64,000 nt of DNA from Paludibacteraceae bacterium (GTDB lineage: Bacteria; Bacteroidota; Bacteroidia; Bacteroidales; Paludibacteraceae): positions 12,846-76,845 of the forward strand of contig JAZUGJ010000073.1 in assembly GCA_045641145.1 (NCBI GenBank), read 5' to 3'. The first letter of the stretch is position 1. Every line of letters starts with the position of its first letter. Shown here in pieces: positions 1-34,275 of this stretch. The translations under genes were made by a program, and so were the position numbers. The notes under the pieces are model-generated. The model did not search any database. It saw nothing but the letters and a program-made list of their open reading frames with translations, and was not told the DNA's origin.

Positions 1-146
1 TCCGTTATACTGCGGTCAGCATCGTGGACTTCGTTGTAACCGCCGCAGTCATCATCGGCTCTTGCTCCGCATTTGCCGTGCTTGCCAACGCCATCGTCAA
101 CATGGTTGTGGGATAAGCCACACGCCCCGCAAGGGGCGGGAAAGGA

Positions 147-2905: not shown

Positions 2906-2988
2906 CTGTACTCCCCTCCCCCGTCTGTACGATGTATGGGCGGGGGAATTTATCCCGCAAAAAAGTTTTACATTTTTCTAAAAAACTC

Positions 2989-3017
2989 TTGACATATAGA
3001 AGAACCTGTGTTATTAT
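2989..3017 (+). promoter_or_regulatory. sigma70-type promoter with extended -10
   Basis: AAAAAACTC-TTGACA (2989-2994), 17 nt, TGTTATTAT (-10 at 3012-3017). The same upstream AAAAAACTCTTGACATA string occurs at 33583-33599. Confidence 0.7.
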
Positions 3018-3062: not shown

Positions 3063-3416
3063 ATGTATCTGTTTAACAACCCGTCCGCCGCCAACCTCGC
3101 ATCCGTCTCCGACCTCGAAGAGGTCGTGAGGGAAGCCGCCGCCGTCATGTCCGCCTTGGGCGTGAGCAAGCCCTTTCTGCAGGAGTGCTACGGCATCACC
3201 CTTTCCCCCTACGCTTTCTACTCCGACATCGCACAGGCGGTGGTCGATGCCGCCCGTTCCACCAACTACGACAGGTTCGCATTGAACCTGTACGGCTTCC
3301 TCTGCCGCTGTGCAGAAGAAGAAACCATCGGCTGGAGAATTGTCTCTGGCATCATGGACGGCGTGAACCTCAGATGGCACATGGATGTCATTGTCGAGTT
3401 CTGCGGCGGTCTGTGA
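3063..3416 (+). CDS. uncharacterized early protein, paralog family 1, copy B (short)
   Basis: 117-aa ORF with an AAAGGAGAG RBS. The N-terminus MYLFNNPSAANLASVSDLEEVV parallels MYLLNNLKAIDTTSVEDLEEVV of the next gene. Confidence 0.55.
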   Translation: MYLFNNPSAANLASVSDLEEVVREAAAVMSALGVSKPFLQECYGITLSPYAFYSDIAQAVVDAARSTNYDRFALNLYGFLCRCAEEETIGWRIVSGIMDGVNLRWHMDVIVEFCGGL

Positions 3417-3419
3417 GCC

Positions 3420-3461
3420 GTGCGCCCCGTCCGTACAATGTATGGGCGTGTGGATTAAAAC
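3420..3461 (+). repeat. solitary type I-C-like CRISPR repeat, degenerate with an enlarged loop, sense to the operon
   Basis: GTGCGCCCC-gtccgtacaatgtat-GGGCGTGTGGATTAAAAC. The 3' 18 nt match the array repeats at 17/18. Ends 19 nt before ATG 3481. Confidence 0.6.
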
Positions 3462-3480: not shown

Positions 3481-3954
3481 ATGTATCTGCTGAACAACTT
3501 AAAAGCAATCGACACCACTTCTGTCGAAGACCTTGAAGAGGTTGTGTCCGAGATTGCGGAGTGCATGAACCAGAACCACCTCGCTTGCCGTTTCCTGCGT
3601 GGTTGGTACGGTATCTCTGCGTTTGATATCGACCACGACCCCGATGTCATTGCTCTTATGAGCATAGGCGGTTACGGCAAGAGTGCAAGAGCAATCGCCG
3701 CCCTCTGCGACTGCTTCGGTCATCACGCTATGTGGTATGACGGAGATTTTCGCCGTGCTACCAATGACGAAATCGAAAGAGAAGTGTACGACATCGCCCG
3801 TTCTGATTGGGACAAGTTCTACCAGAATGTCTTCTCTTTCTTTGATGCCGTCATGCAACAGACCGAGATGGACTTTTCCACCATTTCCGCTATTCTGGAA
3901 GCCATCAGCCTTGATTGGACGGTGGAAGTGCTTGCCAAATTCTGCGGCAAGTAA
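3481..3954 (+). CDS. uncharacterized early protein, paralog family 1, copy C
   Basis: ATG 3481 after AAAGGAGAAG. 157 aa. Family motifs present: VEDLEEVVSEIAECM, CRFLRGWYGISAFDI, DWDKF, WTVEVLAKFCG. Confidence 0.6.
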   Translation: MYLLNNLKAIDTTSVEDLEEVVSEIAECMNQNHLACRFLRGWYGISAFDIDHDPDVIALMSIGGYGKSARAIAALCDCFGHHAMWYDGDFRRATNDEIEREVYDIARSDWDKFYQNVFSFFDAVMQQTEMDFSTISAILEAISLDWTVEVLAKFCGK

Positions 3955-3971: not shown

Positions 3972-4004
3972 GTCACACCCCACATGGGGTGCGTAGATTA
4001 AAAT
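3972..4004 (+). repeat. solitary type I-C-like CRISPR repeat, sense to the operon
   Basis: GTCACACCCCACATGGGGTGCGTAGATTAAAAT (33 nt). Near-identical to array repeat 24609-24641 read on the minus strand. Ends 20 nt before ATG 4025. Confidence 0.8.
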
Positions 4005-6075: not shown

Positions 6076-7080
6076 TTAGGCGTATTTAATTGTGTTATCC
6101 AAAGTATTCTTGTACTTCAGAACATTTTTCCACGGAGTAGGAATACCCCTAAAGCCGTAATATATCCCTGCGATACTTCCTGCGACTGCACATCGCACGG
6201 TAGTAGTTTCGCCGAGATTAGCCAACTTCAGCATGGTTTCATCATATTCCTTACCGTTGCACAAGCCCCACATGATGGAAGCCATCATATCCACAACGCC
6301 GCCGCCATTTGGAATATGGGACATAGGCTTATGGGACAGAACATCCAAGTCGTTCTGGAAACGCCGACTTGCGTTGCGGAGCGCAATATCCGTAGCAGAT
6401 TGATAATAGCGGATAGCGTTATCCAGCCCCTCTTGCAGTAGCTTGTTCATAGGAACGGAAACTCTGTCATTCAGAGTGGCATCCCTTGCGAACACGACCT
6501 CTTTGATGCAGAAGTAGATTATCCCGCAAGCCACCTTTGTTTCCGGGGTATCGTTCGTGAGGGAAGCAACGCTGTGTACAAGCTCTATTGCATCCTTATC
6601 GTATGCTCCCGTTTCAATGGCGTACATACACACAGGTACAATTCTTGATAATGCGCCGCCGTCATCGAGCTTTGTTCCGCAATACTTTGCGTTCTTTCTG
6701 CCGTAACGATAGTCGTCAATCGACTTGTCGCAGGACTTCGGAAGTTCCACGACCTTGCCGTTGATAGCATACTTCCCGAAAGTCATAAAATTAACATAGC
6801 ACGACATGACATGGTCAAGGTTGACCTCGTGCTTTGTTACGATACTATCCGTAGTTGCCAGAGCAAGGCTGGTAGCCGATGACCAAGTACCCTCTGGAAA
6901 GCGGTTGTATGTTCCGTACCCGCTCATGGTAAGAATGGGACGGCGCATCAAATCGCCCCGTCTGTAACGGCTGGCAGGAAGTGCGAGTGCATCTCCGACT
7001 GCCATGCCATAGATAGCGTCACGCCACAGTACTCTAAAGCCAATCCTGTCCCTCTGGGTTTCAAAAGCGTGTGGTTTCAT
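6076..7080 (-). CDS. ADP-ribosylglycohydrolase family protein
   Basis: ATG 7080 after AAGAGG. N-terminal motif IYGMAVGDALALPAS. C-terminal motif LGETTTVRCAVAGSIAGIYYGFRGIPTPW, where the usual GGDTDT is replaced by GETTTV. Confidence 0.75.
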   Translation of the reverse strand: MKPHAFETQRDRIGFRVLWRDAIYGMAVGDALALPASRYRRGDLMRRPILTMSGYGTYNRFPEGTWSSATSLALATTDSIVTKHEVNLDHVMSCYVNFMTFGKYAINGKVVELPKSCDKSIDDYRYGRKNAKYCGTKLDDGGALSRIVPVCMYAIETGAYDKDAIELVHSVASLTNDTPETKVACGIIYFCIKEVVFARDATLNDRVSVPMNKLLQEGLDNAIRYYQSATDIALRNASRRFQNDLDVLSHKPMSHIPNGGGVVDMMASIMWGLCNGKEYDETMLKLANLGETTTVRCAVAGSIAGIYYGFRGIPTPWKNVLKYKNTLDNTIKYA

Positions 7081-7090
7081 AGTATACCTC

Positions 7091-7492
7091 TTACTTCCTG
7101 CCGCACCCGCCGTGAGGGTCACGATAACAACAGCAAGCACACTTGTCGCTATCATCCACTTCACCGTTATCGCCGTTCACATCATACTCCAACGGCTCTG
7201 GCATCGGCATCCAAGACATCACTTCATCTGGTGATATTCCAAGACTGTATGTACCCTCGGTTTCGTGGCAACAACGGATGCAGTAGGTATATACCCCACA
7301 ACAGAATGTGTGGTCATTATCACTCTCCGCCGCCTTGAAGCCGTAAAACTTTCCGGGCATCACGATAAATTTCCCCGCCCTCTTGAGCGTGAACAAAACC
7401 CACTCATCGGACGGCGGCTGACTTTCTGTAATCAAAGTCCAAGAAAGTGTCCTTTCCCGAACCAGTTCAGATAACTCTGGCATTTGCCGCAT
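7091..7492 (-). CDS. DUF551-like phage protein with a Cys-rich insert
   Basis: 133 aa. Contains ...SWMPMPEPLE, the hallmark W-M-P-x-P-E-P of DUF551-type proteins, plus several CC/CxxC clusters. Confidence 0.5.
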   Translation of the reverse strand: MRQMPELSELVRERTLSWTLITESQPPSDEWVLFTLKRAGKFIVMPGKFYGFKAAESDNDHTFCCGVYTYCIRCCHETEGTYSLGISPDEVMSWMPMPEPLEYDVNGDNGEVDDSDKCACCCYRDPHGGCGRK

Positions 7493-10747: not shown

Positions 10748-11288
10748 CTTCCATACCTCTTATTCTGAACTTCGGACACCGTTCGACATAAATGTACTTG
10801 TTTGGATTTCTCCCCCGCAGTCTTGCTTTCCACTTCGGGATTGCTACTTCATCGGTCATCCACGAACATCCATAATTATCGCAGTACTCGCATAACTGAT
10901 GTTTCGTTGTATCTACACCAGCGTAAACACTCCTGTAGGTATCCTTGTCATTTTCAAAATCCCACTTGATGCCAACCGCTTCGAGTATCCATTCCGGGAT
11001 AGGGACATGACCGTACAGTATGTGGTTTACATAGTAGTAAGACAAACCAAGATGTTCCGCAAAGCCCTTGACAGAGAAGTTGTGAAGTATTCTCCATCTC
11101 TGAATATCATGACAAAGTTCTTTTGGAATATGGCTGACCTTTCGCTTCAGCCATGCTTTCCGTATCTCTTTATTCTCCTGCCTGTGCGCCTGTATCTTTT
11201 CCTTGTACTCTCGATACTTGATGCGATTGTACTCCCGCCGCTTTTCCAGTTTATAGGCGGCGATTGCTTCTTCAAGTGTAGGTTTCAT
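10740..11288 (-). CDS. HTH protein with a C-terminal Cys-rich domain, tandem paralog 2
   Basis: Same architecture as 10136-10747: VKGFAEHLGLSYYYVNHILYGHVP plus LCEYCDNYGCSW...VERCPKF. Both start with a basic coiled N-terminus (AIxxYKxEKRR). Confidence 0.55.
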   Translation of the reverse strand: MKPTLEEAIAAYKLEKRREYNRIKYREYKEKIQAHRQENKEIRKAWLKRKVSHIPKELCHDIQRWRILHNFSVKGFAEHLGLSYYYVNHILYGHVPIPEWILEAVGIKWDFENDKDTYRSVYAGVDTTKHQLCEYCDNYGCSWMTDEVAIPKWKARLRGRNPNKYIYVERCPKFRIRGMEDE

Positions 11289-15611: not shown

Positions 15612-15959
15612 TTACAGATTTAAGGATACTCGGAGTGCCTGTTTCACCTTGAGCATATCCAACTCGGTAAGAGTGTCGATGTACTTGCCCACACGGTCAA
15701 TCGAAACGCTATGCACCTGCTCACACAGAACACGCCCGTTCACTTTTTCGGTCTTCACATCGGCATGAGTCGGCATCTGCTTGCGCAGGTTCTGTGTGAA
15801 GTAGCAAATTTCCAGAACAGAACCAGTTTCGTTCAGAACATCGTTGCTGACTACCACGGCAGGGCGACCGCCTCTGCACTCGTTGCCGACTTCTACATCA
15901 CGGGGGAAAATATAGTACACCTCTCCGTAACGATAGGTGCGGTTCTTTTCTTTATCCAC
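15612..15959 (-). CDS. MazF/PemK-family endoribonuclease toxin-like protein
   Basis: GTG start 8 nt after AAGGAG. GEVYYIFPRDVEVGNECRGGRPAVVVSND...CYFTQN...PTHADV...EQVHSVSIDRV follows the PemK/MazF pattern. Confidence 0.75.
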   Translation of the reverse strand: MDKEKNRTYRYGEVYYIFPRDVEVGNECRGGRPAVVVSNDVLNETGSVLEICYFTQNLRKQMPTHADVKTEKVNGRVLCEQVHSVSIDRVGKYIDTLTELDMLKVKQALRVSLNL

Positions 15960-16543: not shown

Positions 16544-16567
16544 ATTTATTCTCCTTTTCATTCATTC

Positions 16568-16598
16568 ATTTGTTCCACACACCTCGTGGGGGTGCTAC
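16568..16598 (-). repeat. degenerate solitary I-C-like repeat in the 5' UTR of gene 16543
   Basis: The minus strand reads GTAGCACCCCCACGAGGTGTGTGGAACAAAT. About 22 of 31 positions match the array repeat consensus (GT.GCACCC....GGTGTGTGGA..AAAT). Ends 24 nt before the ATG. Confidence 0.45.
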
Positions 16599-16639
16599 CG
16601 TTAAGCGGTGGGGCGGTTGCCCGCCCCCTGTCGGATGGT

Positions 16640-17327: not shown

Positions 17328-17783
17328 TTATGCAGAAACGGAATAGCCGTCACAGTACTCGGCAACCGCTTCGGCAATCCAGCCGTGCCGAACGACAGCC
17401 AGTACGGGGGACATCGCCGGGTTGGTAGCGGCGTACTCCTCGACCTTGCGGCAGAAGAGACTCCAGTCGGAGCGGACGACTTCGGAGAAGTCATCCTCTG
17501 CGTTGTTCTGGGAGTACCGCTCGTACCCATACTCGGTGTACAGCAGGTTGTCACCGTACAGGTGAGAAATTTCCGCACAGGTGGATGCGTAGCCGTGAGC
17601 GTCCATTGCCTCTCTCATATCCTCTTCGTTGAGGATATCATAGGCTTCGATGTGGTACATCTTGCGCAGGAAGTTGCACATGATGTTCTCGGAGCGCAGG
17701 TAGTCAGATGCACCACCCATCACGGTGAACAGGTCTTCGTAGTCGGCGGGGTTCATGTTGGGCAGATTGTAGATAGCGTTCAT
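17328..17783 (-). CDS. uncharacterized early protein, paralog family 1, copy D
   Basis: 151 aa: MNAIYNLPNMNPADYEDL...CNFLRKMYHIEAYDI...AMDAHGYASTC...DWSLF...WIAEAVAEYC. Clearly paralogous to 2435-2905. Confidence 0.6.
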   Translation of the reverse strand: MNAIYNLPNMNPADYEDLFTVMGGASDYLRSENIMCNFLRKMYHIEAYDILNEEDMREAMDAHGYASTCAEISHLYGDNLLYTEYGYERYSQNNAEDDFSEVVRSDWSLFCRKVEEYAATNPAMSPVLAVVRHGWIAEAVAEYCDGYSVSA

Positions 17784-17798
17784 AAAAAAACCTCCGTT

Positions 17799-17830
17799 AT
17801 TTTAATCCACGCACCCCGTGCGGGTGCGAC
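17799..17830 (-). repeat. solitary type I-C-like CRISPR repeat in the 5' UTR of gene 17783
   Basis: The minus strand reads GTCGCACCCGCACGGGGTGCGTGGATTAAAAT. It lies between promoter 17871-17899 and the RBS, and ends 15 nt before the ATG. Confidence 0.85.
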
Positions 17831-22788: not shown

Positions 22789-22821
22789 GTTTTAATCCAC
22801 ACACCCCGCACGAGGTGTGAC
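22789..22821 (-). repeat. solitary type I-C-like CRISPR repeat upstream of nrdG
   Basis: The minus strand reads GTCACACCTCGTGCGGGGTGTGTGGATTAAAAC. Ends 33 nt before the nrdG ATG, with the RBS AGGAG in between. Confidence 0.85.
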
Positions 22822-22826
22822 GCTAT

Positions 22827-22865
22827 CTAAAAAGAAAACGCTGTAGCATAGCAACTACAGCGTTT
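22827..22865 (-). terminator. intrinsic terminator between two repeats
   Basis: Minus strand: AAACGCTGTAG-8 nt loop-CTACAGCGTTT followed by TCTTTTT. Confidence 0.6.
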
Positions 22866-22901
22866 CTCCTCGTCCGCCAAAGACATTTTATCCGCATACC
22901 T

Positions 22902-22933
22902 GTTTTAATCCACGCACCCCGTTGGGGTGTGAC
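22902..22933 (-). repeat. solitary type I-C-like CRISPR repeat
   Basis: The minus strand reads GTCACACCCCAACGGGGTGCGTGGATTAAAAC. It is followed by about 35 nt and then the terminator at 22827-22865. Confidence 0.85.
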
Positions 22934-23025
22934 GACAAGGTATGCACCGTCCCACCTGCATGAAACGGCATCCCACATCCAAGAAAGAATATAACACATT
23001 CCAGACGACTTGTCAACGCCCTTTT

Positions 23026-24222: not shown

Positions 24223-24252
24223 TTTTTAATCCACTCCTGCATAAAGCGTGAC
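24223..24252 (-). repeat. decayed repeat remnant
   Basis: The minus strand reads GTCACGCTTTATGCAGGAGTGGATTAAAAA. The ends are conserved (GTCAC...GTGGATTAAAA) but the stem is lost. Confidence 0.3.
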
Positions 24253-24409: not shown

Positions 24410-24775
24410 CTTTTAATTCACGCACCCACATGGGGGGACGCAAGAAGACCGCAACAGTCTTGCGACTACATTACTTTTAATCCACGCACCCCATACAGGG
24501 TGTGACCCACGATTCCGGGCGCAGAGGTTGCATTGGCGTTGATTTTTTAATCCACACACCCAGCACGGAGTGTGACTAAAGGACGTGTAACGGCTAATGT
24601 CTGCCGCCATTTTAATCCACACACCCCATGTGGGGTGTGACTTTGTTTCTGGCCGACCACCACACGGTTTCCCGATATTTTAATCCACGCACCCCACGCA
24701 GGGTGCGACTATCGGACGCACCTACTACCCAACCAAGACGAGGTTTTAATCCACACATCCCGTGTGGGATGCGAC
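24410..24775 (-). CRISPR. CRISPR array with type I-C-like repeats: 6 repeats, 5 spacers
   Basis: Repeats lie at 24743-24775, 24677-24709, 24609-24641, 24544-24576, 24474-24506 and 24410-24442, the last being degenerate. Spacers are 33, 35, 32, 37 and 31 nt. The minus-strand repeat reads GTCGCAYCCC..GGG.TG.GTGGATTAAAAY. The degenerate repeat is distal to the cas8c-like gene. Confidence 0.9.
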
Positions 24776-24922: not shown

Positions 24923-26362
24923 TTATGCACACTTGGGGTTCGCATCGAGAACATCCGTGCCGTATCTGTCGTAATTGTACTTACGGAGAACGGCGCAAGC
25001 GACAAACATCATATGCTCACGGACGCTTGTTTTGTCGTAGTCAATCGTGCCGAACTTTGCGAGATTGTGCTGAAGAGCGTTGACCACATCGAACGGGATA
25101 GTACCGCCGTTGACCATAGCACTCATAAGGCGGATGAACACTCGGTTCGTTGCGTGTTTATCGACAACAAACGAGCCGTCCCGATAAGTGCCGTAGGCGT
25201 ACTTTATGATGTCGCTGATGGACGGGGAATCGAAAGTGGTAACATATGTTTCCTTTTTCTTATCCCACACCGCACGATACCAACTGCACTTCTCTTTCCA
25301 GTCACAGACTTTCTTTAAGAAGTCGTATTTCGGAGTTTCAGCGAGGGCGATGATAGAGTCTCTGCCAGTGTTTGCTCTGTAGGAAATGTAGGTCACATTG
25401 TCCTCAATCGTGTTGCGGCGGCAACCGTTAAGGATTTCCCCCAGTTCCCGTCTGTAGTCGGGGAGCGTAGCGCAATGGCTTTCCACAAACTCGCCGGGCA
25501 GACCGATGTTGATGTGTTCGCCGTTGTAGTCCCAAACAAGGGTAACGACATCGTCATAAGTCTTTGCGTAGTTGGTTACTGCCCACTTCAGCAGATTAGC
25601 TGACTTGGATACCGCAACAACGCCAAAGGCGGCATCATCGGCGTTAGGGACACGCATATTGAGCTTTTTGGTAGACTCATTCGAGAACATCGACACGAAA
25701 GAGGGATATTCTCCGTTTTTCGGAAAACCATCGGATGCGATATCCAGTTCCCCAGTGACCTCACAGATGGTCATACGGGATGCAGGGTCGTTTTCGAGCA
25801 GATTTCTGTAATACCGCTCATACACCCGCATAAAGTCCCTATCTTTGTGGGGAAGCGTGTTGCCGATTCTCCAACGGACTAACGACTTGTCGTTGTACAG
25901 TTTGACAGTGTTGCCATCCTTTACCGTGTGAAGTGCGGTAACACCGTCAAGGTCGGAGAGACAAGTGCCGCCCATGACATACTTGTATACCGCATCAACA
26001 ATGGGCGTGGTATATTCCGAATCGTGCCATGCGGAAAGTTTTCCGATATAATCCGCATGGTGAGCAGTTCCCATATCAGCGACACAACGCAACTGGTCTG
26101 CAAAGCCCTTGGCACACACATTACTGGTAACTCGTTCAGAATCACAGGTACAAGGCACGATTGTGTACCTGTCCCAGTTGCCTCTGACATCGGGGACGTG
26201 GACAGCGTTCACAAAATGCCCATCCCAGTCGATTTCGATTTCCAGACTTGCGTGAACCGTAGCGTGGTACACAGGGGCAAGCGGCGACATACCATCGTAG
26301 TACTCGCCGACAATGGATTCCAACTTGTCATAGGAACGGACTGCCTTGCCGATGATGTCCAT
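24923..26362 (-). CDS. cas8c: Cas8c (Csd1)-like large subunit lacking the C-terminal small-subunit domain
   Basis: Start at ATG 26362 after AAAGGAAG. 479 aa. The layout follows Csd1: MDIIGKAVRSYDKL, RYTIVPCTCDSERVTSNV, SFVSMFSNES..NADDAAFGVVAVSKSANLL, NVTYISYRANTGRDSI, RLMSAMVNGGTIPFDVV, ACAVLRKYNYDRYGTDVLDAN-stop. Similarity was judged from the remembered family consensus. Confidence 0.65.
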   Translation of the reverse strand: MDIIGKAVRSYDKLESIVGEYYDGMSPLAPVYHATVHASLEIEIDWDGHFVNAVHVPDVRGNWDRYTIVPCTCDSERVTSNVCAKGFADQLRCVADMGTAHHADYIGKLSAWHDSEYTTPIVDAVYKYVMGGTCLSDLDGVTALHTVKDGNTVKLYNDKSLVRWRIGNTLPHKDRDFMRVYERYYRNLLENDPASRMTICEVTGELDIASDGFPKNGEYPSFVSMFSNESTKKLNMRVPNADDAAFGVVAVSKSANLLKWAVTNYAKTYDDVVTLVWDYNGEHINIGLPGEFVESHCATLPDYRRELGEILNGCRRNTIEDNVTYISYRANTGRDSIIALAETPKYDFLKKVCDWKEKCSWYRAVWDKKKETYVTTFDSPSISDIIKYAYGTYRDGSFVVDKHATNRVFIRLMSAMVNGGTIPFDVVNALQHNLAKFGTIDYDKTSVREHMMFVACAVLRKYNYDRYGTDVLDANPKCA

Positions 26363-26720: not shown

Positions 26721-27062
26721 TTATTCTGCCACTCTGTAGCTTGTAGCGAGCATATCAATGATTTCGGCAAGGCAATCAATCTGCCCATCCGACATACGCC
26801 CGATAGTAGCAAGGATGCGGACACGCTTTTCCTTTGTGGACTCTCTGCGGAAACTGACCTCGGTCTTTTCATCCTCGGCAAAGTAATCCATGCCGATGCC
26901 GATAAACTCGCAGTACTTTGCAAGGGTGTTGTAACTGGGGTTGCGTTTGCCGTTTTCCAGAAGCGAGATGCCGTTCTGGTGGATACCAAGTTCCCTCATG
27001 ATATCGTACTGGGAAAGCCCTCTGTCGATGCGCAGTTTACGCAGTTTCTCGTTCACGGTCAT
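26721..27062 (-). CDS. XRE-family HTH transcriptional regulator
   Basis: MTVNEKLRKLRIDRGLSQYDIMRELGIHQNGISLLENGKRNPSYNTLAKY is a canonical Cro/CI-type HTH. Confidence 0.8.
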   Translation of the reverse strand: MTVNEKLRKLRIDRGLSQYDIMRELGIHQNGISLLENGKRNPSYNTLAKYCEFIGIGMDYFAEDEKTEVSFRRESTKEKRVRILATIGRMSDGQIDCLAEIIDMLATSYRVAE

Positions 27063-27403: not shown

Positions 27404-27906
27404 CAGCGGTCACCCCCCACGATAAACGGCTCGCCGCCCTTTCTGCGGATGCGGTAGTCCACCTCGACAAGGAAGTGGATGGGACTGGCAGGGACTGTTG
27501 CGCCGTGCAGGTCGGTGAAGTCATCGTCCATGTAGGCGAGGATGTCCTTGCAGTCGGCTTCGTCCAGAACGGACATACCGTCCAAGAGCTTGCCGAAGCG
27601 GAAAGCCTCTGGGTTCACCACCTCGTAAGAGGCGGCGTTGATGGCGTAGCAAGCCATGAAGAAAACCTTTTCCTTGTTCATAGTATCATTCTCCTTTTTA
27701 GTTTCGGGCATCTCTCTGTTGTACTCTTCGGGTATCTTTCTGTCCCAACACTCTTTGCAGTATAAGCCGCCTAACCAACACAGAGCGAAGTCACAATCGT
27801 GAAACTGCTCGTACCTGTAAATATGGGGACAGGCGAAACATCCACCCACATATTTATCATCCACATACTCTGGGCGTTCCCGTTTCAGTTTTTCTCTAAA
27901 GGTCAT
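27403..27906 (-). CDS. Cys-rich MTFREKLK-family protein, copy D, fused to an extra C-terminal domain
   Basis: Start at ATG 27906 (MTFREKLKRERPEYV...GGCFACP...CKECWDRKIPEE). The reading frame continues about 90 aa further. An internal start at MNKEK is possible. Confidence 0.5.
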   Translation of the reverse strand: MTFREKLKRERPEYVDDKYVGGCFACPHIYRYEQFHDCDFALCWLGGLYCKECWDRKIPEEYNREMPETKKENDTMNKEKVFFMACYAINAASYEVVNPEAFRFGKLLDGMSVLDEADCKDILAYMDDDFTDLHGATVPASPIHFLVEVDYRIRRKGGEPFIVGGDR

Positions 27907-28124
27907 TTCTTTTCCCCTGCCTTTTCGGGCATCTCTCTGTCCCAACATTCTTTACACTTTATCCCAATTGACCAACACATGATGCAGTCGTGTGTGCAAT
28001 TAGGAAGTGTCAGCGGTGCGGAAGACTCGTATCCGTAATCATGCGGGCATAAGTTGCATCCACCCACATATTTACTGCCAACGCACTCTGGGTGTTCCTG
28101 CTTCAGCTTCTCTCTAAAGGTCAT
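27903..28124 (-). CDS. Cys-rich MTFREKLK-family protein, copy C
   Basis: ATG 28124 with an ATGA overlap. MTFREKLKQEHPECV..GGCNLCP..CKECWDREMPE. Confidence 0.55.
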   Translation of the reverse strand: MTFREKLKQEHPECVGSKYVGGCNLCPHDYGYESSAPLTLPNCTHDCIMCWSIGIKCKECWDREMPEKAGEKK

Positions 28125-28333
28125 CTTCTGGCATCCTCTTCTGGCACTTCCCTGTCCCAACAAGCTCTGCACAGCAACCCATCGTTGATTCCGTAATCCC
28201 CTTTCACATCAAGGCAGTGCGCAGGGTAATCAGCCTCGAAACCAAAGGTGACGGGACAGCCGTAGCACCCGCCCATGAACTCGTCACCGACCTCTGCGGG
28301 ATACTTCAGCTTCAGTTTTTCTCTAAAGGTCAT
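28121..28333 (-). CDS. Cys-rich MTFREKLK-family protein, copy B
   Basis: MTFREKLKLKYPAEV..GGCYGCP..CRACWDREVPE. Confidence 0.55.
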   Translation of the reverse strand: MTFREKLKLKYPAEVGDEFMGGCYGCPVTFGFEADYPAHCLDVKGDYGINDGLLCRACWDREVPEEDARR

Positions 28334-28785
28334 TCTTTTTCCCCCTTGTATGGTTCAGGCATCGGCATCCATGCCATACCGTCCACGATTTCACCGTAGC
28401 TCTCAAGGTAACACATACTACCGTCCATTCCAAAAACATCTGACGAAACAAACCCGTTATAGGAAACGAGAATCTCCTGACCGTCATCGGGGAGCTTGCC
28501 GTCAATAATCTCACGGGCTTCGTTCAGTTCCCGCTCCTCATAAGAAGAAGCTTCCCACTCTTCATCGGTCATCTTTCTTATGCGCCACACGTTCCACCCC
28601 ATTACGGTTGGAGCGGCTTCCAGAGCCTTTTCTGCGGCTTCGATGCCGTAGTCTTCCGGGTCTTCCCATACCCATTTGCCAAGTCCGTAGCAGGTTTCTG
28701 CACAGTACATATTGGCTTCATAGTCACCACGCCCATGTAAGGCAACCAGTGCCTCCTTGAGAGCATCTGCATCAATTAGTCTCAT
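28330..28785 (-). CDS. DUF551-like phage protein
   Basis: Start at ATG 28785 (MRLIDADALKEAL). The C-terminus is GMAWMPMPEPYKGE. Confidence 0.5.
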   Translation of the reverse strand: MRLIDADALKEALVALHGRGDYEANMYCAETCYGLGKWVWEDPEDYGIEAAEKALEAAPTVMGWNVWRIRKMTDEEWEASSYEERELNEAREIIDGKLPDDGQEILVSYNGFVSSDVFGMDGSMCYLESYGEIVDGMAWMPMPEPYKGEKE

Positions 28786-28969
28786 CGTCATCCCCCTTTT
28801 CGGGCATCTCCCTGCTCCAGCATTCATGACAGGTGATTGCGTCATTGTCGCATTCGGTGGGTCTTGCGGCTTCGTATCCGAAAACACTCGGACAGCTAAG
28901 ACAGCCACCTCCGAAAACATCGCCAACATATTGAGGATGTTCCTTTGCGAGTCGTTCTCTAAATGTCAT
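28772..28969 (-). CDS. Cys-rich MTFREKLK-family protein, copy A
   Basis: ATG 28969 after GAGGGAG. MTFRERLAKEHPQYV..GGCLSCP..CHECWSREMPE. Confidence 0.55.
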   Translation of the reverse strand: MTFRERLAKEHPQYVGDVFGGGCLSCPSVFGYEAARPTECDNDAITCHECWSREMPEKGDDDETN

Positions 28970-29027
28970 AACACTCCCTCTTACATTCCGGGCATCCATC
29001 AGATGCACTTTTCGTTGCCTGTGCTAT

Positions 29028-29125: not shown

Positions 29126-29153
29126 TTGACACATAGAAAAGAAGTGCTATAAT
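29126..29153 (+). promoter_or_regulatory. sigma70-type promoter with extended -10 driving a solitary repeat
   Basis: TTGACA (29126-29131), 16 nt, TGCTATAAT (-10 at 29148-29153). The repeat starts about 13 nt after the predicted TSS. Confidence 0.7.
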
Positions 29154-29172
29154 GTATGTATACCAGTTAAAG

Positions 29173-29204
29173 GTCGCATCCCATGCTGGTGCGTGGATTA
29201 ATAT
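29173..29204 (+). repeat. solitary type I-C-like repeat, plus orientation, with a variant 3' end
   Basis: GTCGCATCCCATGCTGGTGCGTGGATTAATAT. No credible ORF lies downstream, and the terminator at 29257-29300 follows. Confidence 0.75.
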
Positions 29205-29256
29205 GAGGAAGCCCGTGCCTCTCTCGCACAGTACAAGCCGTACAAGACCGTATTGT

Positions 29257-29300
29257 AAAATGCCGCTCTGCAAGGTCAGTTCCCTGCAGGGCGGCATTTT
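29257..29300. terminator. bidirectional intrinsic terminator
   Basis: AAAATGCCGCTCTGCAAGG-loop-CCCTGCAGGGCGGCATTTT. A long imperfect palindrome flanked by A and T runs. A second small hairpin lies at 29306-29325. Confidence 0.65.
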
Positions 29301-29405: not shown

Positions 29406-29438
29406 CTTTTAATCCACACATCCCGTGTGGGATGTGAC
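29406..29438 (-). repeat. solitary type I-C-like CRISPR repeat
   Basis: The minus strand reads GTCACATCCCACACGGGATGTGTGGATTAAAAG. It differs from the leader-proximal array repeat (24743-24775) at 2 positions. Confidence 0.85.
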
Positions 29439-31759: not shown

Positions 31760-33547
31760 TTACTTTTCTAACATACCCAATCTTCCGAGTACGGTTATAA
31801 ATTCTTCTCTGGTCATAACATCGTGGGGGCGTGTGCCATCAACAACACCGAGAGAAGTTGCTTTATCCCAACTGGGCTTTGCCCATGTGCTGGCTTCTTT
31901 AGTTTCGTTTAAGAAAGCACGATACTTGTTCCCGATTGTAGCAGATTGTTTATTATCAATCTTCTCGGTAAGTTCGTCAATCGTCATGTCCAGTTCCTCC
32001 TTGCTGTTTGTCACAACCTCGTTTTTCGGCTCGACTTTCGGCTCGGTCTTCCCGCTCTGTCTTAACATCTCGGCGGCGACACGAATTTTGAACTTTGCCC
32101 ATTCGCCGTCACTTCCGCTATCGCCGTTCCAGCCGATAATTCCGGGGCAGTTGCCCGTGATGAAAGTTTGTCCGTTCTGGCGCATCATGAACATACCAGT
32201 CGGGACGGTAACGCAGGTAACATCGGTTTTCCGTTCCGTCATCTCTGTATCGTAACGAACGGAGTAGTTACTGCCAGAGTAACGGACGGTATCATAGCTC
32301 CTGTCCGCACTTCCTGTAGCTCCAAGACGGCATCTTTTTCCACGAGTGGCAAATAATGCCTGTACGAAGTCAAGATTGTCCTGCTCACTACTGAAATACA
32401 TACTGCCCTCGACACTTCCGTCAGCAAGGAAAATCTCATCGAAAAACGCATTGAACTGCTCCTCGTTCATCTCGAACAGATTCCAAGAAAAGCGTTTGTC
32501 GGTAAGCCACTTCTCGCATTCTTGACAATGGCGAACTCCCCAGACACGGATAAAGGTACTGCCGTCCTTTTCGTAAGGAACGACATCGTACTTCAACTCA
32601 AGTGCTTTCAGTATCTCGATAACACGGTCTATCTTGCGTTGCTTCTTGAAGTGGAACTCAATACCTGTAGGGTTCTTTGCATCTTTAGAGCCGATGTAGT
32701 GACCGTCAGCTTGCACCCACACCAGAAAACGCAGATAGTCGATTGATAATGGCAATCCAGCCCCGTCATAGTCGCCAGTTACTTTGAGTTCGTAACTGGT
32801 TTTCTTTCCGAGCATATCGCCCCAATCCTTTATTTTCCACGGGGCGTTTGAGCCATCGGTAGCACGGTACAGAGTTCGATGGTCTTTGGTAGCCTCGTAT
32901 CCCCGCCGTGCGATTACAGTATCCACCCACGGAGTGAGCTTGTCAATGACACGCCCCCATACCACTCTGTCTTTGTCATAATCATAGGTCATAACCTCGT
33001 CCCCGATGCGGATTGCACCGAGGTTTTTCCAGCCGTTTCTGGTCAGCAATTCCGTCTTGTCAATCGGCAACGGCAACTTGCCCGTCACATCGTAATGCCG
33101 ATACAGTTTGTCGATACCAAGATTGTGCTTCAGCAGAAGATGCGCCGCAAGTTCAACAGCGTTCTGGATAACCGCATTTGTGAAGTAGTAGCTACTATCA
33201 TTCGGAGCGGTCATCTTGTGGATAAGATTGCTACTGCACATCTCAACGCTGATGCTGTTGTTGTTCTTGATAACTCCGTACATAGAACCGCCACGGGTAT
33301 AGTACTTCGAGCCGCCAACCGCACCTGTGTACACATTATCATTAGGCGAGTACCGCCAGATACTGCCGTCATCCACTACATAATCAGCAGATGCTTTTTC
33401 CTTTGAGGCGTTCCACATAGCACAGACATTATACGCCACGCCCTTTTTGGACTGCGTTCCTGCTGTGTAGTGCATCACAACATATTTGATGTTGCCGCTT
33501 CGATTCCATATTTTGTTTGCACCAGAAAATTGGTTAATCGGCAACAT
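31760..33547 (-). CDS. endolysin: N-acetylmuramoyl-L-alanine amidase (Amidase_2/PGRP type) interrupted by an intein, with a C-terminal SLH-like wall-binding repeat
   Basis: N-terminal amidase motifs (YVVMHYTAG, SVEMC, RHYDVTGK) resume at CPGIIGW after about 309 aa. The C-terminal WAKPSWDKATSLGVVDG..MTREEFITVLGRL is SLH-like. Confidence 0.85.
   Translation of the reverse strand: MLPINQFSGANKIWNRSGNIKYVVMHYTAGTQSKKGVAYNVCAMWNASKEKASADYVVDDGSIWRYSPNDNVYTGAVGGSKYYTRGGSMYGVIKNNNSISVEMCSSNLIHKMTAPNDSSYYFTNAVIQNAVELAAHLLLKHNLGIDKLYRHYDVTGKLPLPIDKTELLTRNGWKNLGAIRIGDEVMTYDYDKDRVVWGRVIDKLTPWVDTVIARRGYEATKDHRTLYRATDGSNAPWKIKDWGDMLGKKTSYELKVTGDYDGAGLPLSIDYLRFLVWVQADGHYIGSKDAKNPTGIEFHFKKQRKIDRVIEILKALELKYDVVPYEKDGSTFIRVWGVRHCQECEKWLTDKRFSWNLFEMNEEQFNAFFDEIFLADGSVEGSMYFSSEQDNLDFVQALFATRGKRCRLGATGSADRSYDTVRYSGSNYSVRYDTEMTERKTDVTCVTVPTGMFMMRQNGQTFITGNCPGIIGWNGDSGSDGEWAKFKIRVAAEMLRQSGKTEPKVEPKNEVVTNSKEELDMTIDELTEKIDNKQSATIGNKYRAFLNETKEASTWAKPSWDKATSLGVVDGTRPHDVMTREEFITVLGRLGMLEK
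32150..33076 (-). mobile_element. intein with a LAGLIDADG homing-endonuclease domain inside the endolysin
   Basis: Spans residues about 158-466. Block A-like IDKTELLTRNGWKNLGAIRIGDEV, block B TKDH, two LAGLIDADG-type motifs (LVWVQADGHY and IFLADGSVEG), block F/G DVTCVTVPTGMFMMRQNGQTFITGN, then extein CPG. The boundaries are approximate. Confidence 0.7.
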
Positions 33548-33591
33548 AAAACCACCCCCTATAAATAAATTTACTTTTTTCTAAAAAACTC

Positions 33592-33620
33592 TTGACATAA
33601 TAACAACCATATGGTACTAT
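33592..33620 (+). promoter_or_regulatory. sigma70-type promoter with extended -10 driving a solitary repeat
   Basis: AAAAAACTC-TTGACA (33592-33597), 17 nt, TGGTACTAT (-10 at 33615-33620). It lies on the strand opposite the flanking late genes. Confidence 0.7.
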
Positions 33621-33658
33621 GTATGTACCGCAAAAAACCACACGGTTTTTCTAATCGT

Positions 33659-33691
33659 GTCGCACCCCGCATAGGGTGCGTGGATTAAAAC
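33659..33691 (+). repeat. solitary type I-C-like CRISPR repeat, plus orientation
   Basis: GTCGCACCCCGCATAGGGTGCGTGGATTAAAAC. A full-consensus repeat about 32 nt after the predicted TSS. Confidence 0.9.
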
Positions 33692-33699
33692 TGTGAGCC

Positions 33700-33724
33700 T
33701 TGTGCGGGGCGTGTGGCTTAAAAG
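33700..33724 (+). repeat. partial second repeat (3' half only)
   Basis: TTGTGCGGGGCGTGTGGCTTAAAAG lies 8 nt after the full repeat and resembles ...GGGTGCGTGGATTAAAAC. Confidence 0.4.
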
Positions 33725-33730
33725 AAAAAA

Positions 33731-33765
33731 GCGAGGGGAACGGTGAACCCCTCGCTTTTCTTTTC
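33731..33765 (+). terminator. intrinsic terminator
   Basis: GCGAGGGG-loop-CCCCTCGC followed by TTTTCTTTTCT. Confidence 0.7.
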
Positions 33766-33786
33766 TCAACTAACGATTACCAGAAA

Positions 33787-33990
33787 TTAAGAGAACAGGT
33801 CAGCCAGAGTCTTTTTCTTGTCCAACTGATAACCACGCATGATTTTACGCCACTCGTTGTATTCTTTGGAGTAGTCCTGCCAACCGTTCTGGATAGCGAA
33901 CTGCAAAGAAGCGGAATCGGCATCAATACCCAGCTTGTTGCCCAGAGCGGCGATACCTTTTCTGTTCTGATAGAAACGATTCTCGGTCAT
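33787..33990 (-). CDS. hypothetical protein
   Basis: 67-aa ORF between the holin and the endolysin. Confidence 0.45.
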   Translation of the reverse strand: MTENRFYQNRKGIAALGNKLGIDADSASLQFAIQNGWQDYSKEYNEWRKIMRGYQLDKKKTLADLFS

Positions 33991-34074: not shown

Positions 34075-34275
34075 TTATTTTTCGGCACTCTCAACCTCTG
34101 GCAGACCGCCGAGGGAAGTGAGGAGTGACAGAACCGCCGCAAGGGCGGCAGAGCCAACGACCACTTGCCAATCGACTGCGGTGATGGTAACGCCCGCAGG
34201 AAGCAGAGCCGCCGCAGTCTGACAGAAAGTCTTGACGGCACGGATAAGAGCCGCCTTAAACCAAATCATCGTCAT
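34075..34275 (-). CDS. putative holin
   Basis: 66 aa. RAVKTFCQTAAALLPAG plus a second hydrophobic helix and a charged C-terminus. It lies next to the endolysin. Confidence 0.55.
   Translation of the reverse strand: MTMIWFKAALIRAVKTFCQTAAALLPAGVTITAVDWQVVVGSAALAAVLSLLTSLGGLPEVESAEK

Follow-up and report, generated by a model that had tools for sequence, protein, structure and literature searches.

A phage-borne promoter-repeat-terminator unit with a type I-C CRISPR repeat, a candidate RNA anti-CRISPR

Solitary CRISPR repeats located behind promoters were found to inhibit type I-F, I-E, I-C and V-A systems, and one of these RNA anti-CRISPRs (Racrs), RacrIC1, is co-transcribed with acrIC5 (PMC10651486). 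Viral crRNA-like regulators known as Cracr have also been described, with type I-C examples, multiplexed arrays and synergy with co-encoded anti-CRISPR factors (Liu et al., 10.1101/2024.10.29.618823). The layout of the type I-C repeat (~32-33 nt, a 2-nt 5' overhang, a 7-bp stem, a 5-6-nt loop and an 11-nt 3' overhang starting with UGG) has been described together with the specificity of Cas5c, which was reported to depend on the base of the stem, on U-G-G 3' of the cut and on the overhang at the 3' end (PMC8524198).

A locus with such a repeat was found in the phage DNA analyzed here (the window, the whole stretch of 64,000 nt). It occupies 33592-33766 of the plus strand, where a promoter is followed by a type I-C repeat of 33 nt, a weakly matching 3' half repeat and a strong terminator that reads on both strands (Table 1). 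The unit is intergenic, lying outside ORFs between 33547 and 33787, and is antisense, between the endolysin gene and the genes for a 67-aa protein and a holin. From its sequence elements we tentatively read it, with slightly less than even confidence, as a real and independently transcribed ncRNA gene (an 'RNA moron'), most likely a Racr-type repeat mimic or decoy for the Cas proteins of a host type I-C system.

Table 1 Features of the unit, its neighbours, related elements in the window and structural differences from a relative
Feature	Position	Strand	Details
Upstream A/T-rich region	33563..33591	+	Precedes the -35 box; common to two other phage promoters
Sigma-70-type promoter	33592..33620	+	TTGACA, 17-nt spacer, TG-extended -10 (TGGTACTAT)
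Leader, ~32 nt	33627..33658	+	Predicted transcription start to repeat; small hairpin
Intact type I-C CRISPR repeat	33659..33691	+	GTCGCACCCCGCATAGGGTGCGTGGATTAAAAC; 52.3 bits; local 7-bp hairpin
Relic of final codons and stop codon of deleted paralog gene	33691..33699	+	CTGTGAGCC
3' half repeat, relic of variant downstream repeat	33700..33724	+	5' arm and loop deleted
Bidirectional intrinsic terminator	33725..33766	both	A-run, 8-bp G+C stem, 9-nt loop, U-run
Amidase_2 endolysin gene	31760-33547	-	
67-aa gene	33787-33990	-	
r1t-type holin gene	34075-34275	-	
Stand-alone unit U2	29126..29300	+	Promoter, repeat 29173-29204 (40.5 bits), ~54 nt, bidirectional terminator; antisense to local genes
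Stand-alone unit U3	22840..23015	-	Promoter, repeat 22902-22933 (49.4 bits), 36 nt, terminator
Mini-array	24410..24775	-	5 full repeats and 1 degenerate; 5 spacers of 31-37 nt
Solitary Cas8c homologue, C-terminally truncated, 479 aa	24923..26362	-	Pfam Cas_Csd1 4e-30; PADLOC Cas8c 5e-41
Structural difference	4003/4010		Extra cassette in relative
Structural difference	16567-16600		Precise indel of a repeat
Structural difference	22785/22790		162-nt duplication in relative
Structural difference	22902-22937		Precise indel of U3 repeat
Structural difference	23.2-24.6 kb		Array region rearranged
Structural difference	33691-33698		145-nt indel right after the unit's repeat

The promoter scored 10/12 with TG in the promoter scan, its TTGACA lying at 33592-33597 and its TG-extended TACTAT ending at 33620. 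It belongs to a family that is not a product of chance: the pattern TTGACA-N13-16-TGNTAHNAT occurs 8 times in the window against 0.05 expected, and 0 of 100 shuffled sequences reached this number. The promoter and the region upstream (33563-33620, direct-repeat family D9) are 76% identical to 2960-3017 and also related to 2325-2382, which both drive paralog protein genes. A motif 3' of the -10 box, GTATGTAC, is likewise present in unit U2 and in the paralog promoters. We infer from the -10 position that transcription would start at 33627, giving a predicted RNA of ~140 nt in which the leader hairpin has a folding energy of -7.7 kcal/mol; the repeat starts 38 nt past the promoter end. No ORF with a ribosome-binding site was found inside this transcript. 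A hidden small protein was rejected on this ground, and the sole ATG ORF (33611-33688) was rejected as a transcript-borne protein because it starts 5' of the inferred transcription start.

At the 3' end a G+C-rich stem-loop with a U-run forms a Rho-independent terminator (-19.9 kcal/mol, z = -4.1). Its 8-bp G+C stem, GCGAGGGG (33731-33738) with CCCCTCGC (33748-33755), is preceded by an A-run, lengthened by A-U pairs and followed by UUUUCUUUUCU, the U-run extending to 33766. The terminator scan, limited to loops of 8 nt, missed it for that reason only. On the minus strand the same stem is followed by TTTTTTCTTTT, downstream of the 67-aa gene. The first-pass annotation had described this order of promoter, repeat, half repeat and terminator, antisense by the lysis genes, and every part is present at the coordinates that it gave. 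The extended -10 promoter and the intrinsic terminator that it proposed hold, the latter acting in sequence terms on both strands, and its view that the RNA carries no ORF agrees with the lack of a credible ORF with a ribosome-binding site.

The positions of promoter and terminator raise the question of lysis-gene control. A minus-strand extended -10 element (TGTTATTAT, 33605-33597), from which the endolysin gene may be transcribed, overlaps the plus-strand promoter. In that case the terminator would shield this gene from the holin/67-aa operon, transcribing the unit early would occlude or counteract expression of the endolysin, and the repeat would simply be carried along. Consistent with this, TGTTATTAT lies within the spacer of the plus-strand promoter and shares one base, the last, with its -35 box, the scan detected no other minus-strand promoter between the 67-aa and endolysin genes, and these two genes are separated by a terminator on both strands. 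In addition, most substitutions relative to the close relative L001 fall at TGTTATTAT, leaving a -10-like TAATAT. The minus-strand element, however, is without a -35 box (CATACA) and falls below the scan threshold, and the transcript of the unit misses both the ribosome-binding site and the coding sequence of the endolysin gene. Lysis control would also leave the repeats behind promoters elsewhere in the genome unexplained, and it appears a very improbable role.

The repeat, on which the decoy reading depends, consists of GT, CGCACCC, CGCATA, GGGTGCG and TGGATTAAAAC, that is, a 2-nt overhang, a 7-bp stem, a 6-nt loop and an 11-nt tail starting with UGG, the published type I-C layout. Stem base, U-G-G and 3' overhang are all intact. 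Its bit score is partly so by construction, since the covariance model was built from window copies including 33659-33691. Compared with the array repeat of Lachnospiraceae type I-C loci (GTCGCACCCCGCATGGGGTGCGTGGATTGAAAT; L008, L009, L012 and L018), 30 of the 33 positions are identical (91%), which ties for best among the phage's own copies, and 31/33 match the terminal variant repeat of the same arrays. The L008 array adjoins cas5c-cas8c-cas7c-cas4-cas1c. Comparison with these nearest bacterial arrays, which lie beside a complete I-C operon, confirms both the full repeat and the type I-C assignment put forward in the first-pass annotation. The nearest matching repeats come from Lachnospiraceae and Clostridia MAGs. 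From the published specificity of Cas5c, a cut is predicted after G33680, leaving the 11-nt handle UGGAUUAAAAC (33681-33691) (PMC8524198). All full copies in the window carry ATTAAAA in this handle (U2: ATTAATA) versus ATTGAAA in bacterial arrays, and recognition by the Cas5c of the real host is therefore an assumption. In GTDB genomes and JGI metagenomes the phage-type handle ATTAAAA was found only as single variant repeats within arrays.

Rfam searches, with gathering thresholds over the whole window and permissive thresholds over 33500-33850, revealed no CRISPR-DR and no credible family, only terminator-driven noise. A generic REP-like hairpin was rejected as an explanation; with bona fide I-C repeats the copy shares 91% identity, and the window contains a true array. 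Among 317 spacers from candidate host arrays, zero matched the phage or its relatives.

The segment behind the repeat retains traces of a protein gene. The sequence CTGTGAGCC aligns with ...GGTCTGTGAGCC, the end of the gene at 3063-3416, with a score of 35, while shuffled sequences scored 12.6 +/- 2.4 and 0/2000 reached 35. The half repeat (GTGTGGCTTAAAA), which is kept in relative L001, differs by one mismatch from the 3' end of the full repeat (12/13 positions) and aligns, once an internal deletion of 19 nt is allowed for, to positions 3439-3461 of the variant repeat at 3420-3461. Scored as a whole repeat it reaches 9.4 bits (E about 9), with 20/32 identity (62%) in register. An intact cassette is present in relative L027, where an extra paralog gene is driven by a promoter and start region (TGGTACTATGTATGTGTACC) almost the same as those of the unit, and other repeat copies in the window flank small acidic proteins (pI 4.3-4.5). 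The paralog protein family yielded no function in Pfam, PHROGs or the protein database. Taken from these alignments, the unit is shown to be a deletion derivative of a cassette of promoter, repeat, small acidic protein gene, repeat and terminator, in which the gene was lost and the RNA elements stayed. Because of this descent the half repeat is regarded as a relic and not as a designed feature. Tandem full repeats with zero spacer were rejected as a description of the unit; the likeness of the second element is homology to 3420-3461 with an internal deletion. Nor is the unit a CRISPR mini-array, for which at least 2 repeats and a spacer of ~30-40 nt are expected: the gap between repeat and half repeat is 8 nt and the second element is weak.

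These results qualify parts of the first-pass annotation. The 3' half repeat that it reported is present at 33700-33724, as a weak relic. Its statement that there is no spacer-length insert is correct only when the half repeat is counted as a repeat; otherwise 39 nt separate the repeat from the terminator stem. Of the design logic that it saw, the Cas-type repeat remains, and the argument is weakened by the half repeat being a relic and the unit a deletion derivative.

Relative L001, 97-98% identical, has 145 nt more than the window directly 3' of the unit's repeat. L001 retains promoter boxes, leader, repeat and terminator, with -35 and -10 identical, 6 positions of the promoter spacer changed and one substitution in the terminator loop. 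This retention around the indel fits a function needing only promoter and repeat; since L001 is the sole close relative covering the unit, its conservation carries no statistical weight. Exact-protein look-ups (endolysin, holin, P0001 and the 198-aa neighbour) gave no record, so that only L001 covers the unit. In the distant relatives L021-L023 (endolysins 40-46% identical) no repeat or comparable unit was found 5' of the endolysin gene. GenBank phages included no relative of the segment at 31-36 kb. In IMG/VR neither the endolysin nor the Cas8c homologue had a relative, and no phage-type repeat was found.

The same history could mean that the unit is in decay: a moron cassette would have lost its gene via deletions adjoining the repeat, the leftover would still be transcribed but functionless, and any Cas binding would be incidental and redundant with the 11 other copies. 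The alignment of the post-repeat segment with the stop codon and variant repeat of the paralog gene agrees with this, as do the 145 nt of decayed middle in L001, including the CTGTGAG also retained there, and the intact cassette in L027 with its almost identical promoter and start region. Repeat borders are moreover hot spots of structural change, 6/6 differences of at least 20 nt between the window and the relative being located at repeats or in the rearranged array region. However, two separate deletions took coding sequence and spared promoter boxes, repeat and terminator in both phages, the design recurs in two further units without a gene, and a strong constitutive promoter directed against late genes would impose a burden if it did nothing. 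We consider decay rather unlikely.

These six differences, found over the ~30 kb shared with the SRR28408156 relative (Table 1), would also fit a site acting in DNA, a cassette junction at which homologous recombination between the dispersed copies, or host Cas1-Cas2 acting on repeats, shuffles accessory cassettes and the RNA is a by-product. Dispersed repeats, however, rearrange passively, which needs no selected function, and an RNA-level role is indicated by the co-orientation of the copies with transcription, their siting and the retention of the hairpin. Every copy points in the direction of transcription and is placed after a promoter or before a ribosome-binding site, and 93.6% of cells in the hairpin are paired across copies, 2 pairs showing compensatory changes. 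We regard a selected recombination site as highly doubtful. One sister copy that is orthologous between relatives differs at 8/33 positions, against 1/60 in its upstream flank. Such turnover would be expected if the repeat sequence tracks host repeats; a recombination junction at that place explains it equally well.

For the decoy reading the predicted structure of the RNA is of importance. Folded alone, the repeat is predicted to form its 7-bp hairpin with -13 kcal/mol. When the full RNA is folded, the predicted structure of lowest energy (-61.3 kcal/mol, z = -5.2) has, in place of this canonical hairpin, one of 24 bp (-32.6 kcal/mol), which pairs the 5' half of the repeat with the relic and places the handle in a loop. 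According to this model the long hairpin would hinder Cas5c unless binding occurs during transcription. In the predicted fold of the L001 variant the 24-bp pairing is absent and the canonical hairpin is kept.

The unit is one of several repeat-bearing elements in the window. Full repeat copies number 12, including the unit, two further promoter-repeat-terminator units (U2 and U3), the 5-spacer mini-array and 5'UTR or intergenic copies; at least six belong to acidic small-protein cassettes, where they lie in 5'UTRs or intergenically. U2 has a terminator stem and a whole-RNA fold with z = -5.7, and the U3 repeat is precisely absent in relative L024. No two repeats of the mini-array are alike, but the hairpin is preserved in them. 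The array adjoins the Cas8c homologue, at 24.4-26.4 kb, and no cas gene lies within 7 kb of the unit. This protein shares 25% identity with residues 1-466 of host-type Cas8c (604 residues); its nearest relatives are ~30% identical and mostly ~600 aa long, and only their first ~465 residues align. Cas5c, Cas7c and Cas3 were not detected among the 71 other ORFs of the window. The array spacers and all post-repeat segments gave only self-matches and repeat-derived matches against the window and host loci. A search of GenBank phages with the array region returned only an unrelated I-C array in a faecal contig, and two array spacers had no match in IMG/VR. Given the 11 other full copies, the mini-array and the truncated Cas8c, the protein partner of the RNA may be partly phage-encoded.

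A crRNA-like role with this Cas8c was considered in this context. Cutting by Cas5c would leave a 3' product of the 11-nt handle, the following 39 nt and the terminator hairpin, the last taking the place of the 3' repeat hairpin. Host Cas5c and Cas7c and the phage Cas8c, which lacks the Cas11c-like domain, would take up this product in a hybrid complex, either as a dummy guide or as a Cracr-like regulator that binds DNA without recruiting Cas3. The truncated Cas8c and the mini-array lie 7-9 kb from the unit, and the absence of Cas5c, Cas7c and Cas3 from the other ORFs would suit a hybrid complex. The unit and U3 both consist of repeat, spacer-length stretch (39 and 36 nt) and terminator hairpin (U2 being longer, ~54 nt), the handle variant common to all full window copies could mark an orthogonal set, and viral crRNA-like regulators including I-C examples have been described (10.1101/2024.10.29.618823). 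However, the 39 nt are a repeat-derived relic plus A-run and are replaced by an indel in the 98% identical relative. No target for the unit was found in the window, host loci or GenBank phages, nor for the array spacers there (two of which were also compared with IMG/VR). The sole internal match, of 18 nt at 114-131, falls on a further repeat-like hairpin and misses the seed, and 8 nt between repeat and half repeat compares with ~19 nt in Cracr pseudo-spacers. Such a role seems improbable.

Side by side, the window holds a Cas8c without the C-terminal Cas11c-like domain, a 5-spacer array, three stand-alone repeat RNAs and at least six embedded repeats. A wider and rather speculative possibility, to which we give limited credence, is that these form a distributed, cas-poor kit with which the phage takes over the host I-C machinery and does not just block it, host Cas5c/Cas7c on phage RNAs together with phage Cas8c making inert or reprogrammed complexes. 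Cas5c might then also process phage mRNAs, and the repeats might serve as junctions for gaining, losing and shuffling accessory cassettes.

For the unit itself a Racr-type decoy is the explanation that we prefer. The functional core would be one intact host-type I-C repeat, ~32 nt past a consensus early-type promoter. After recognising the 7-bp hairpin and the following UGG, host Cas5c would bind the RNA and probably cleave it 3' of G33680. Cas5c, together with Cas7c and Cas8c, would be held by the products in complexes without a useful guide, leaving less of the Cas pool for host crRNAs against the phage. The effect of the unit would probably be additive with the other repeat copies and the truncated Cas8c. 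We infer transcription of the unit, binding and cutting by Cas5c and inhibition of immunity from the sequence elements. The solitary-repeat criteria were taken from PMC10651486: identity to a known CRISPR repeat is not below 90% (30/33) over 90% or more of the length, and the repeat is intergenic with a promoter within 250 bp upstream. With regard to a second repeat within 100 bp in the flanks, an emulated criterion, the relic (62%) falls under the 70% cut, and its 3' end nonetheless matches at 12/13. The two other gene-less units of the same design in the genome (U2 and U3) count in favour of a decoy; the lowest-energy fold, which buries the repeat hairpin, and the resemblance to a decaying cassette count against it. 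The first-pass reading as an RNA anti-CRISPR is consistent with these in-silico criteria; it relied on a design logic that is now weakened by the cassette origin, it is qualified by the predicted fold, and it overlooked the wider context.

If active, the unit would be the second natural type I-C RNA anti-CRISPR and the first as a clean promoter-to-terminator RNA gene, and a compact part for switching off I-C tools. Its context outweighs the unit itself: in this phage numerous repeat mimics occur together with a truncated Cas8c that stands alone. Comparison of the window with its relative suggests that such RNA genes may arise via loss of the protein gene from a repeat-flanked cassette, and almost all structural differences between the two phages, which share 93-98% identity, coincide with repeat copies.

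Phage morons are independent promoter-gene-terminator insertions in late operons. Like these, the unit has its own promoter and terminator, is oppositely oriented among late genes and varies in presence and content between close relatives. Unlike them, its cargo is an RNA element and not a protein gene, which was apparently deleted. With the viral CRISPR mini-arrays (Faure et al. 2019; Medvedeva et al. 2019; PMC11656645) the phage shares host-type repeats in a virus without a full cas set, including the array at 24410-24775. The unit, unlike the mini-arrays, has no spacer between repeats, and the repeats of the phage array differ mutually whereas the described ones are host-identical. As in Cracr, CreR and CreA (Liu et al., 10.1101/2024.10.29.618823), a repeat is followed by a degenerate second repeat in a phage-encoded element. 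The pseudo-spacers there are ~18-27 nt long with at least 9 PAM-proximal matches to the promoter of cas or creT (toxin); the gap of the unit is 8 nt, with no match in the host loci compared, a comparison that leaves aside host cas3 promoter regions.

The closest likeness is with the Racrs, RacrIC1 in particular (Camara-Wilpert et al. 2023, PMC10651486). The unit, too, is a phage-borne intergenic single repeat of at least 90% host-type identity behind a strong promoter, and is of type I-C, the subtype in which Cas5c processes. Similar to RacrIC1 with acrIC5, the other copies in the phage are predicted to be co-transcribed with small acidic proteins. In contrast to the Racrs, the unit is a full promoter-to-terminator element without a protein gene. 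A relic half repeat follows its repeat after 8 nt, the repeat hairpin has a competitor in the predicted lowest-energy fold, and the handle is ATTAAAA and not ATTGAAA. The unit is, furthermore, one of 12 copies in a phage that also carries an array and a Cas8c homologue. Racrs have been described before, a validated I-C one among them, and the surrounding toolkit of repeats and Cas8c is the more novel part.

U1, the unit under study (33592-33766), was found to consist of a promoter, a full repeat, 8 nt, a half repeat and a terminator, all on the plus strand, as the first-pass annotation had described it (see table). A stricter promoter pattern (TTGACA-N13-16-TGNTAHNAT) has 8 matches in the window, where 0.05 would be expected, and the 30 nt 5' of the U1 -35 box are homologous to two protein-gene promoters (family D9). 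The terminator has a folding energy of -19.9 kcal/mol (z = -4.1) and is absent from the scan-tool output solely because its loop is 9 nt long. On the minus strand its stem is followed by TTTTTTCTTTT, and it is therefore bidirectional. No ORF with a ribosome-binding site was found within the predicted U1 transcript, which bears out the description of this RNA as lacking an ORF. An extended -10-like sequence of the minus strand (TGTTATTAT, 33605-33597) lies inside the promoter spacer, overlapping the last base of the -35 box, 50 nt before the start codon of the endolysin gene. It is here that most substitutions relative to L001, a contig of one relative (Logan SRR28408156), are located. This putative endolysin promoter may compete with the U1 promoter. 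That U1 controls the lysis genes through this overlapping element and the bidirectional terminator is considered very improbable.

Features of U1, other repeat units, associated genes and structural differences from the relative
Feature	Position	Strand	Remarks
U1 -35 box, TTGACA	33592-33597	+	read from sequence
U1 promoter spacer (17 nt) and TG-extended -10	-10 ends 33620	+	10/12 with TG in promoter scan
U1 full repeat, 33 nt	33659-33691	+	GTCGCACCCCGCATAGGGTGCGTGGATTAAAAC; sequence
U1 gap, 8 nt	33692-33699	+	sequence
U1 half repeat, 3' repeat-like end	within 33700-33724	+	GTGTGGCTTAAAA; sequence
U1 terminator	33731-33766	+	stem-loop and U-run; sequence, folding
Amidase_2 endolysin gene	31760-33547	-	U1 flank
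67-aa gene	33787-33990	-	U1 flank
r1t-type holin gene	34075-34275	-	U1 flank
U2	29126-29300	+	promoter, leader starting GTATGTA, repeat 29173-29204, ~54 nt, bidirectional terminator
U3	23015-22840	-	promoter, repeat, 36 nt, terminator
Mini-array	24775-24410	-	5 full and 1 degenerate repeat; 5 spacers, 31-37 nt
Embedded full copy	3972-4004	+	covariance model
Embedded full copies	17799-17830, 22789-22821, 29406-29438	-	covariance model
Embedded weaker copy	3420-3461	+	
Embedded weaker copies	16568-16598, 24223-24252	-	
Small acidic paralogs	2435-2905, 3063-3416, 3481-3954	+	own consensus promoters
Small acidic paralog	17328-17783	-	own consensus promoter
Small acidic paralog in relative	L027 11063-11494		extra cassette
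Cas8c (Csd1) homologue, solitary, 479 aa (P0110)	24923-26362	-	Pfam Cas_Csd1 4e-30, PADLOC Cas8c 5e-41
Extra 580-nt cassette in relative	4003/4010 (breakpoint)		after repeat 3972-4004
Precise 34-nt indel	16567-16600		copy 16568-16598
162-nt duplication	22785/22790		after repeat 22789-22821
Precise 36-nt indel of U3 repeat	22902-22937		repeat absent in L024
Rearranged array region	23.2-24.6 kb		
U1 145-nt indel	33691-33698		

GTDB genomes and JGI metagenomes were searched with a degenerate pattern of the phage repeat, which gave 18 loci with exactly one match each, almost always within a long type I-C-style array whose normal repeat ends in ATTGAAA(T/C). The closest arrays were those of the Lachnospiraceae MAGs L008 and L009 and of contigs L012 and L018, with the repeat GTCGCACCCCGCATGGGGTGCGTGGATTGAAAT. 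The U1 repeat matches this repeat at 30 of 33 positions, joint best among the phage copies. The L008 array is adjoined by cas5c, cas8c, cas7c, cas4 and cas1c, which confirms the earlier I-C assignment. With its 2-nt overhang, 7-bp stem, 6-nt loop and 11-nt tail starting UGG, the U1 repeat has the layout reported for Cas5c substrates, in which the stem base, the cut site and the U-G-G after the cut are central to recognition (PMC8524198). The handle, the 3' tail of the repeat, reads ATTAAAA in all full window copies (ATTAATA in U2) compared to ATTGAAA in bacterial I-C arrays. In the GTDB and JGI loci the A-form handle was never present in more than one repeat per locus, usually the last of the array.

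The reading tentatively favoured is that of a decoy of the RNA anti-CRISPR (Racr) type. U1 would be a strongly transcribed early small RNA, the intact host-type repeat of which would bind Cas5c. The RNA would probably be cut by Cas5c and would divert Cascade subunits, an effect additive with that of the other repeat copies. Transcription, Cas binding and inhibition are thereby extrapolated from RacrIF1 and RacrIC1 (PMC10651486). U1 itself is in our view a real feature, and its candidacy as an I-C RNA anti-CRISPR is credible, though unproven.

Among the elements of U1, the half repeat is the weakest. A repeat-like 3' end is present as claimed, but as a whole repeat it scores 9.4 bits (E ~9), with 20/32 identity in register. 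U1 was rejected as a mini-array, only 8 nt separating repeat and half repeat. The 7-bp hairpin expected of the U1 repeat is obtained when it is folded alone (-13 kcal/mol). In the lowest-energy fold of the predicted 146-nt transcript (-61.3 kcal/mol, z = -5.2) the 5' half and loop of the repeat are paired with the half repeat (GCCUUGUGCGGGG) in a 24-bp hairpin of -32.6 kcal/mol, the handle lying in the loop. The bases on which this pairing relies are peculiar to the window variant; L001 retains the canonical hairpin.

The comparison of U1 rests on one relative, L001, which is 97-98% identical in the flanks and has kept the -35, -10, leader, repeat, half repeat and terminator. It differs by six substitutions in the promoter spacer and by an additional 145 nt directly 3' of the repeat. 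Located at L001 2600-2744 on the minus strand of that locus, the segment includes the remnant of an ORF (18 codons, with CTGTGA at its end). It also includes a hairpin of 9 bp with a GAAA loop, after which comes GCCGTTAAAAC; this hairpin looks like a repeat of other sequence. The post-repeat segment of U1 aligns to the 3' end of the paralog gene at 3063-3416 and the variant repeat downstream of it (CTGTGAGCC-GTGCG-[19 nt missing]-GGGCGTGTGG(A/C)TTAAAA), with a score of 35 against 12.6 +/- 2.4 for shuffles (0/2000 as high). L027, a contig of the same relative, carries an extra paralog cassette with a promoter and start region (TTGACA...TGGTACTATGTATGTGTACC) nearly those of U1. Because of this alignment and this near-identical promoter, U1 is best read as a promoter-repeat-paralog gene-repeat-terminator cassette minus its deleted gene, of which L001 represents a less-deleted state. 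At the level of sequence, the features of U1 and its cassette origin are established. That U1 is a functionless remnant of such a decayed cassette is somewhat unlikely.

Over ~30 kb common to the window and contigs L001, L024 and L027 (identity 93-98%), each of the six structural differences of at least 20 nt falls either on the border of a repeat or within the array region; two of them are the precise presence or absence of one repeat. The L027 orthologue (10911-10943) of the copy at 3972-4004 reads ATTGAAAC and differs at 8/33 positions, compared to 1 position in the 60 nt upstream. A role of the U1 repeat as DNA-level cassette junction for recombination is given very little credence. In distant relatives (endolysins 40-46% identical) repeats near the endolysin are absent.

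With a covariance model derived from the window's own copies, 12 full copies (40-55 bits) and several degenerate ones were detected in the window. Besides U1 there are two stand-alone units of shared design, U2, which is likewise antisense to neighbouring genes, and U3, in which a hairpin (GCATACCT...AGGTATGC) holds the repeat in its loop. At 27700-29000 on the minus strand, four small paralogous genes in tandem (repeat families D3, D7 and D16) gave no family match. No two repeats of the mini-array are identical, and they agree with the consensus of the candidate host at 24-30 of 33 positions. Stem pairing is maintained despite this divergence (93.6% of cells paired, 2 pairs with compensatory changes). 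For none of the spacers was a target found in the window, host loci or GenBank phages, nor for two of them in IMG/VR.

The embedded copies lie directly 3' of promoters, or intergenically 4-33 nt before ribosome-binding sites, without exception in the orientation of transcription. Phage mRNAs with such co-oriented copies may conceivably be processed or regulated by Cas5c. Several flank a four-member family of small acidic paralogs (117-157 aa, pI 4.3-4.5), which varies in copy number between relatives and has no homologue outside this phage lineage in Pfam, PHROG and the protein database. These are possible anti-defence proteins. A hairpin between divergent small genes (110-140, minus strand; CGCCCC-TTGC-GGGGCG, then TGTGGCTTA) has 18 identical nt in common with the U1 half repeat and is probably a further variant copy. 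The early region also harbours genes for a MazF/PemK-like toxin (15612-15959, minus strand), an ADP-ribosylglycohydrolase (6076-7164, minus strand), a RecD2-like helicase, HU and NrdG.

The gene of the Cas8c homologue directly precedes the mini-array and follows an HTH regulator gene (26721-27062). The protein shows 25% identity to residues 1-466 of the L008 Cas8c (604 aa). An exhaustive search of 1.84 billion representative proteins revealed no close relative; the nearest are ~30% identical (best about 32%), mostly ~600 aa long and aligned over their first ~465 residues only. The phage protein therefore lacks the C-terminal ~130 aa. O'Brien and colleagues are said to have reported in 2020 that this region of Cas8c is also the source of Cas11c in I-C systems. 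According to a recent review, a solitary truncated Cas8c has essentially not been seen in phage so far. No Cas5c, Cas7c or Cas3 was found among the 71 other ORFs of the window, which is part of a 134.6-kb contig. The U1 RNA could act like a crRNA in a hybrid complex that combines phage Cas8c with the Cas5c and Cas7c of the host, but no target for it was found in the window, host loci or GenBank phages and its post-repeat segment is without conservation, and we consider this reading decidedly unlikely.

Among known kinds, U1 comes closest to the solitary repeat unit or Racr, of which a validated I-C member, RacrIC1, is co-transcribed with acrIC5 (PMC10651486). Viral crRNA-like regulatory RNAs (Cracrs) are defined by a pseudo-spacer of ~19 nt or more and a promoter target (10.1101/2024.10.29.618823). 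U1 was rejected as a Cracr, with 8 nt before the half repeat and no target found in the sequences searched. The RNA anti-CRISPR proposal of the first-pass annotation holds for the computable traits of repeat identity, intergenic position and promoter. Solitariness is borderline, given the downstream half repeat, and two further traits are ambiguous: the repeat alone folds canonically but meets a competing hairpin in the full transcript, and the absence of cas genes is set against a Cas8c homologue and mini-array in the same window. As a candidate, U1 would belong to a kind already known, and its surroundings are more surprising: a solitary truncated Cas8c, repeats with the variant handle, a dozen in number and many of them lying in mRNAs, an array in which no two repeats are alike, and repeats wherever the structure differs from that of a close relative.
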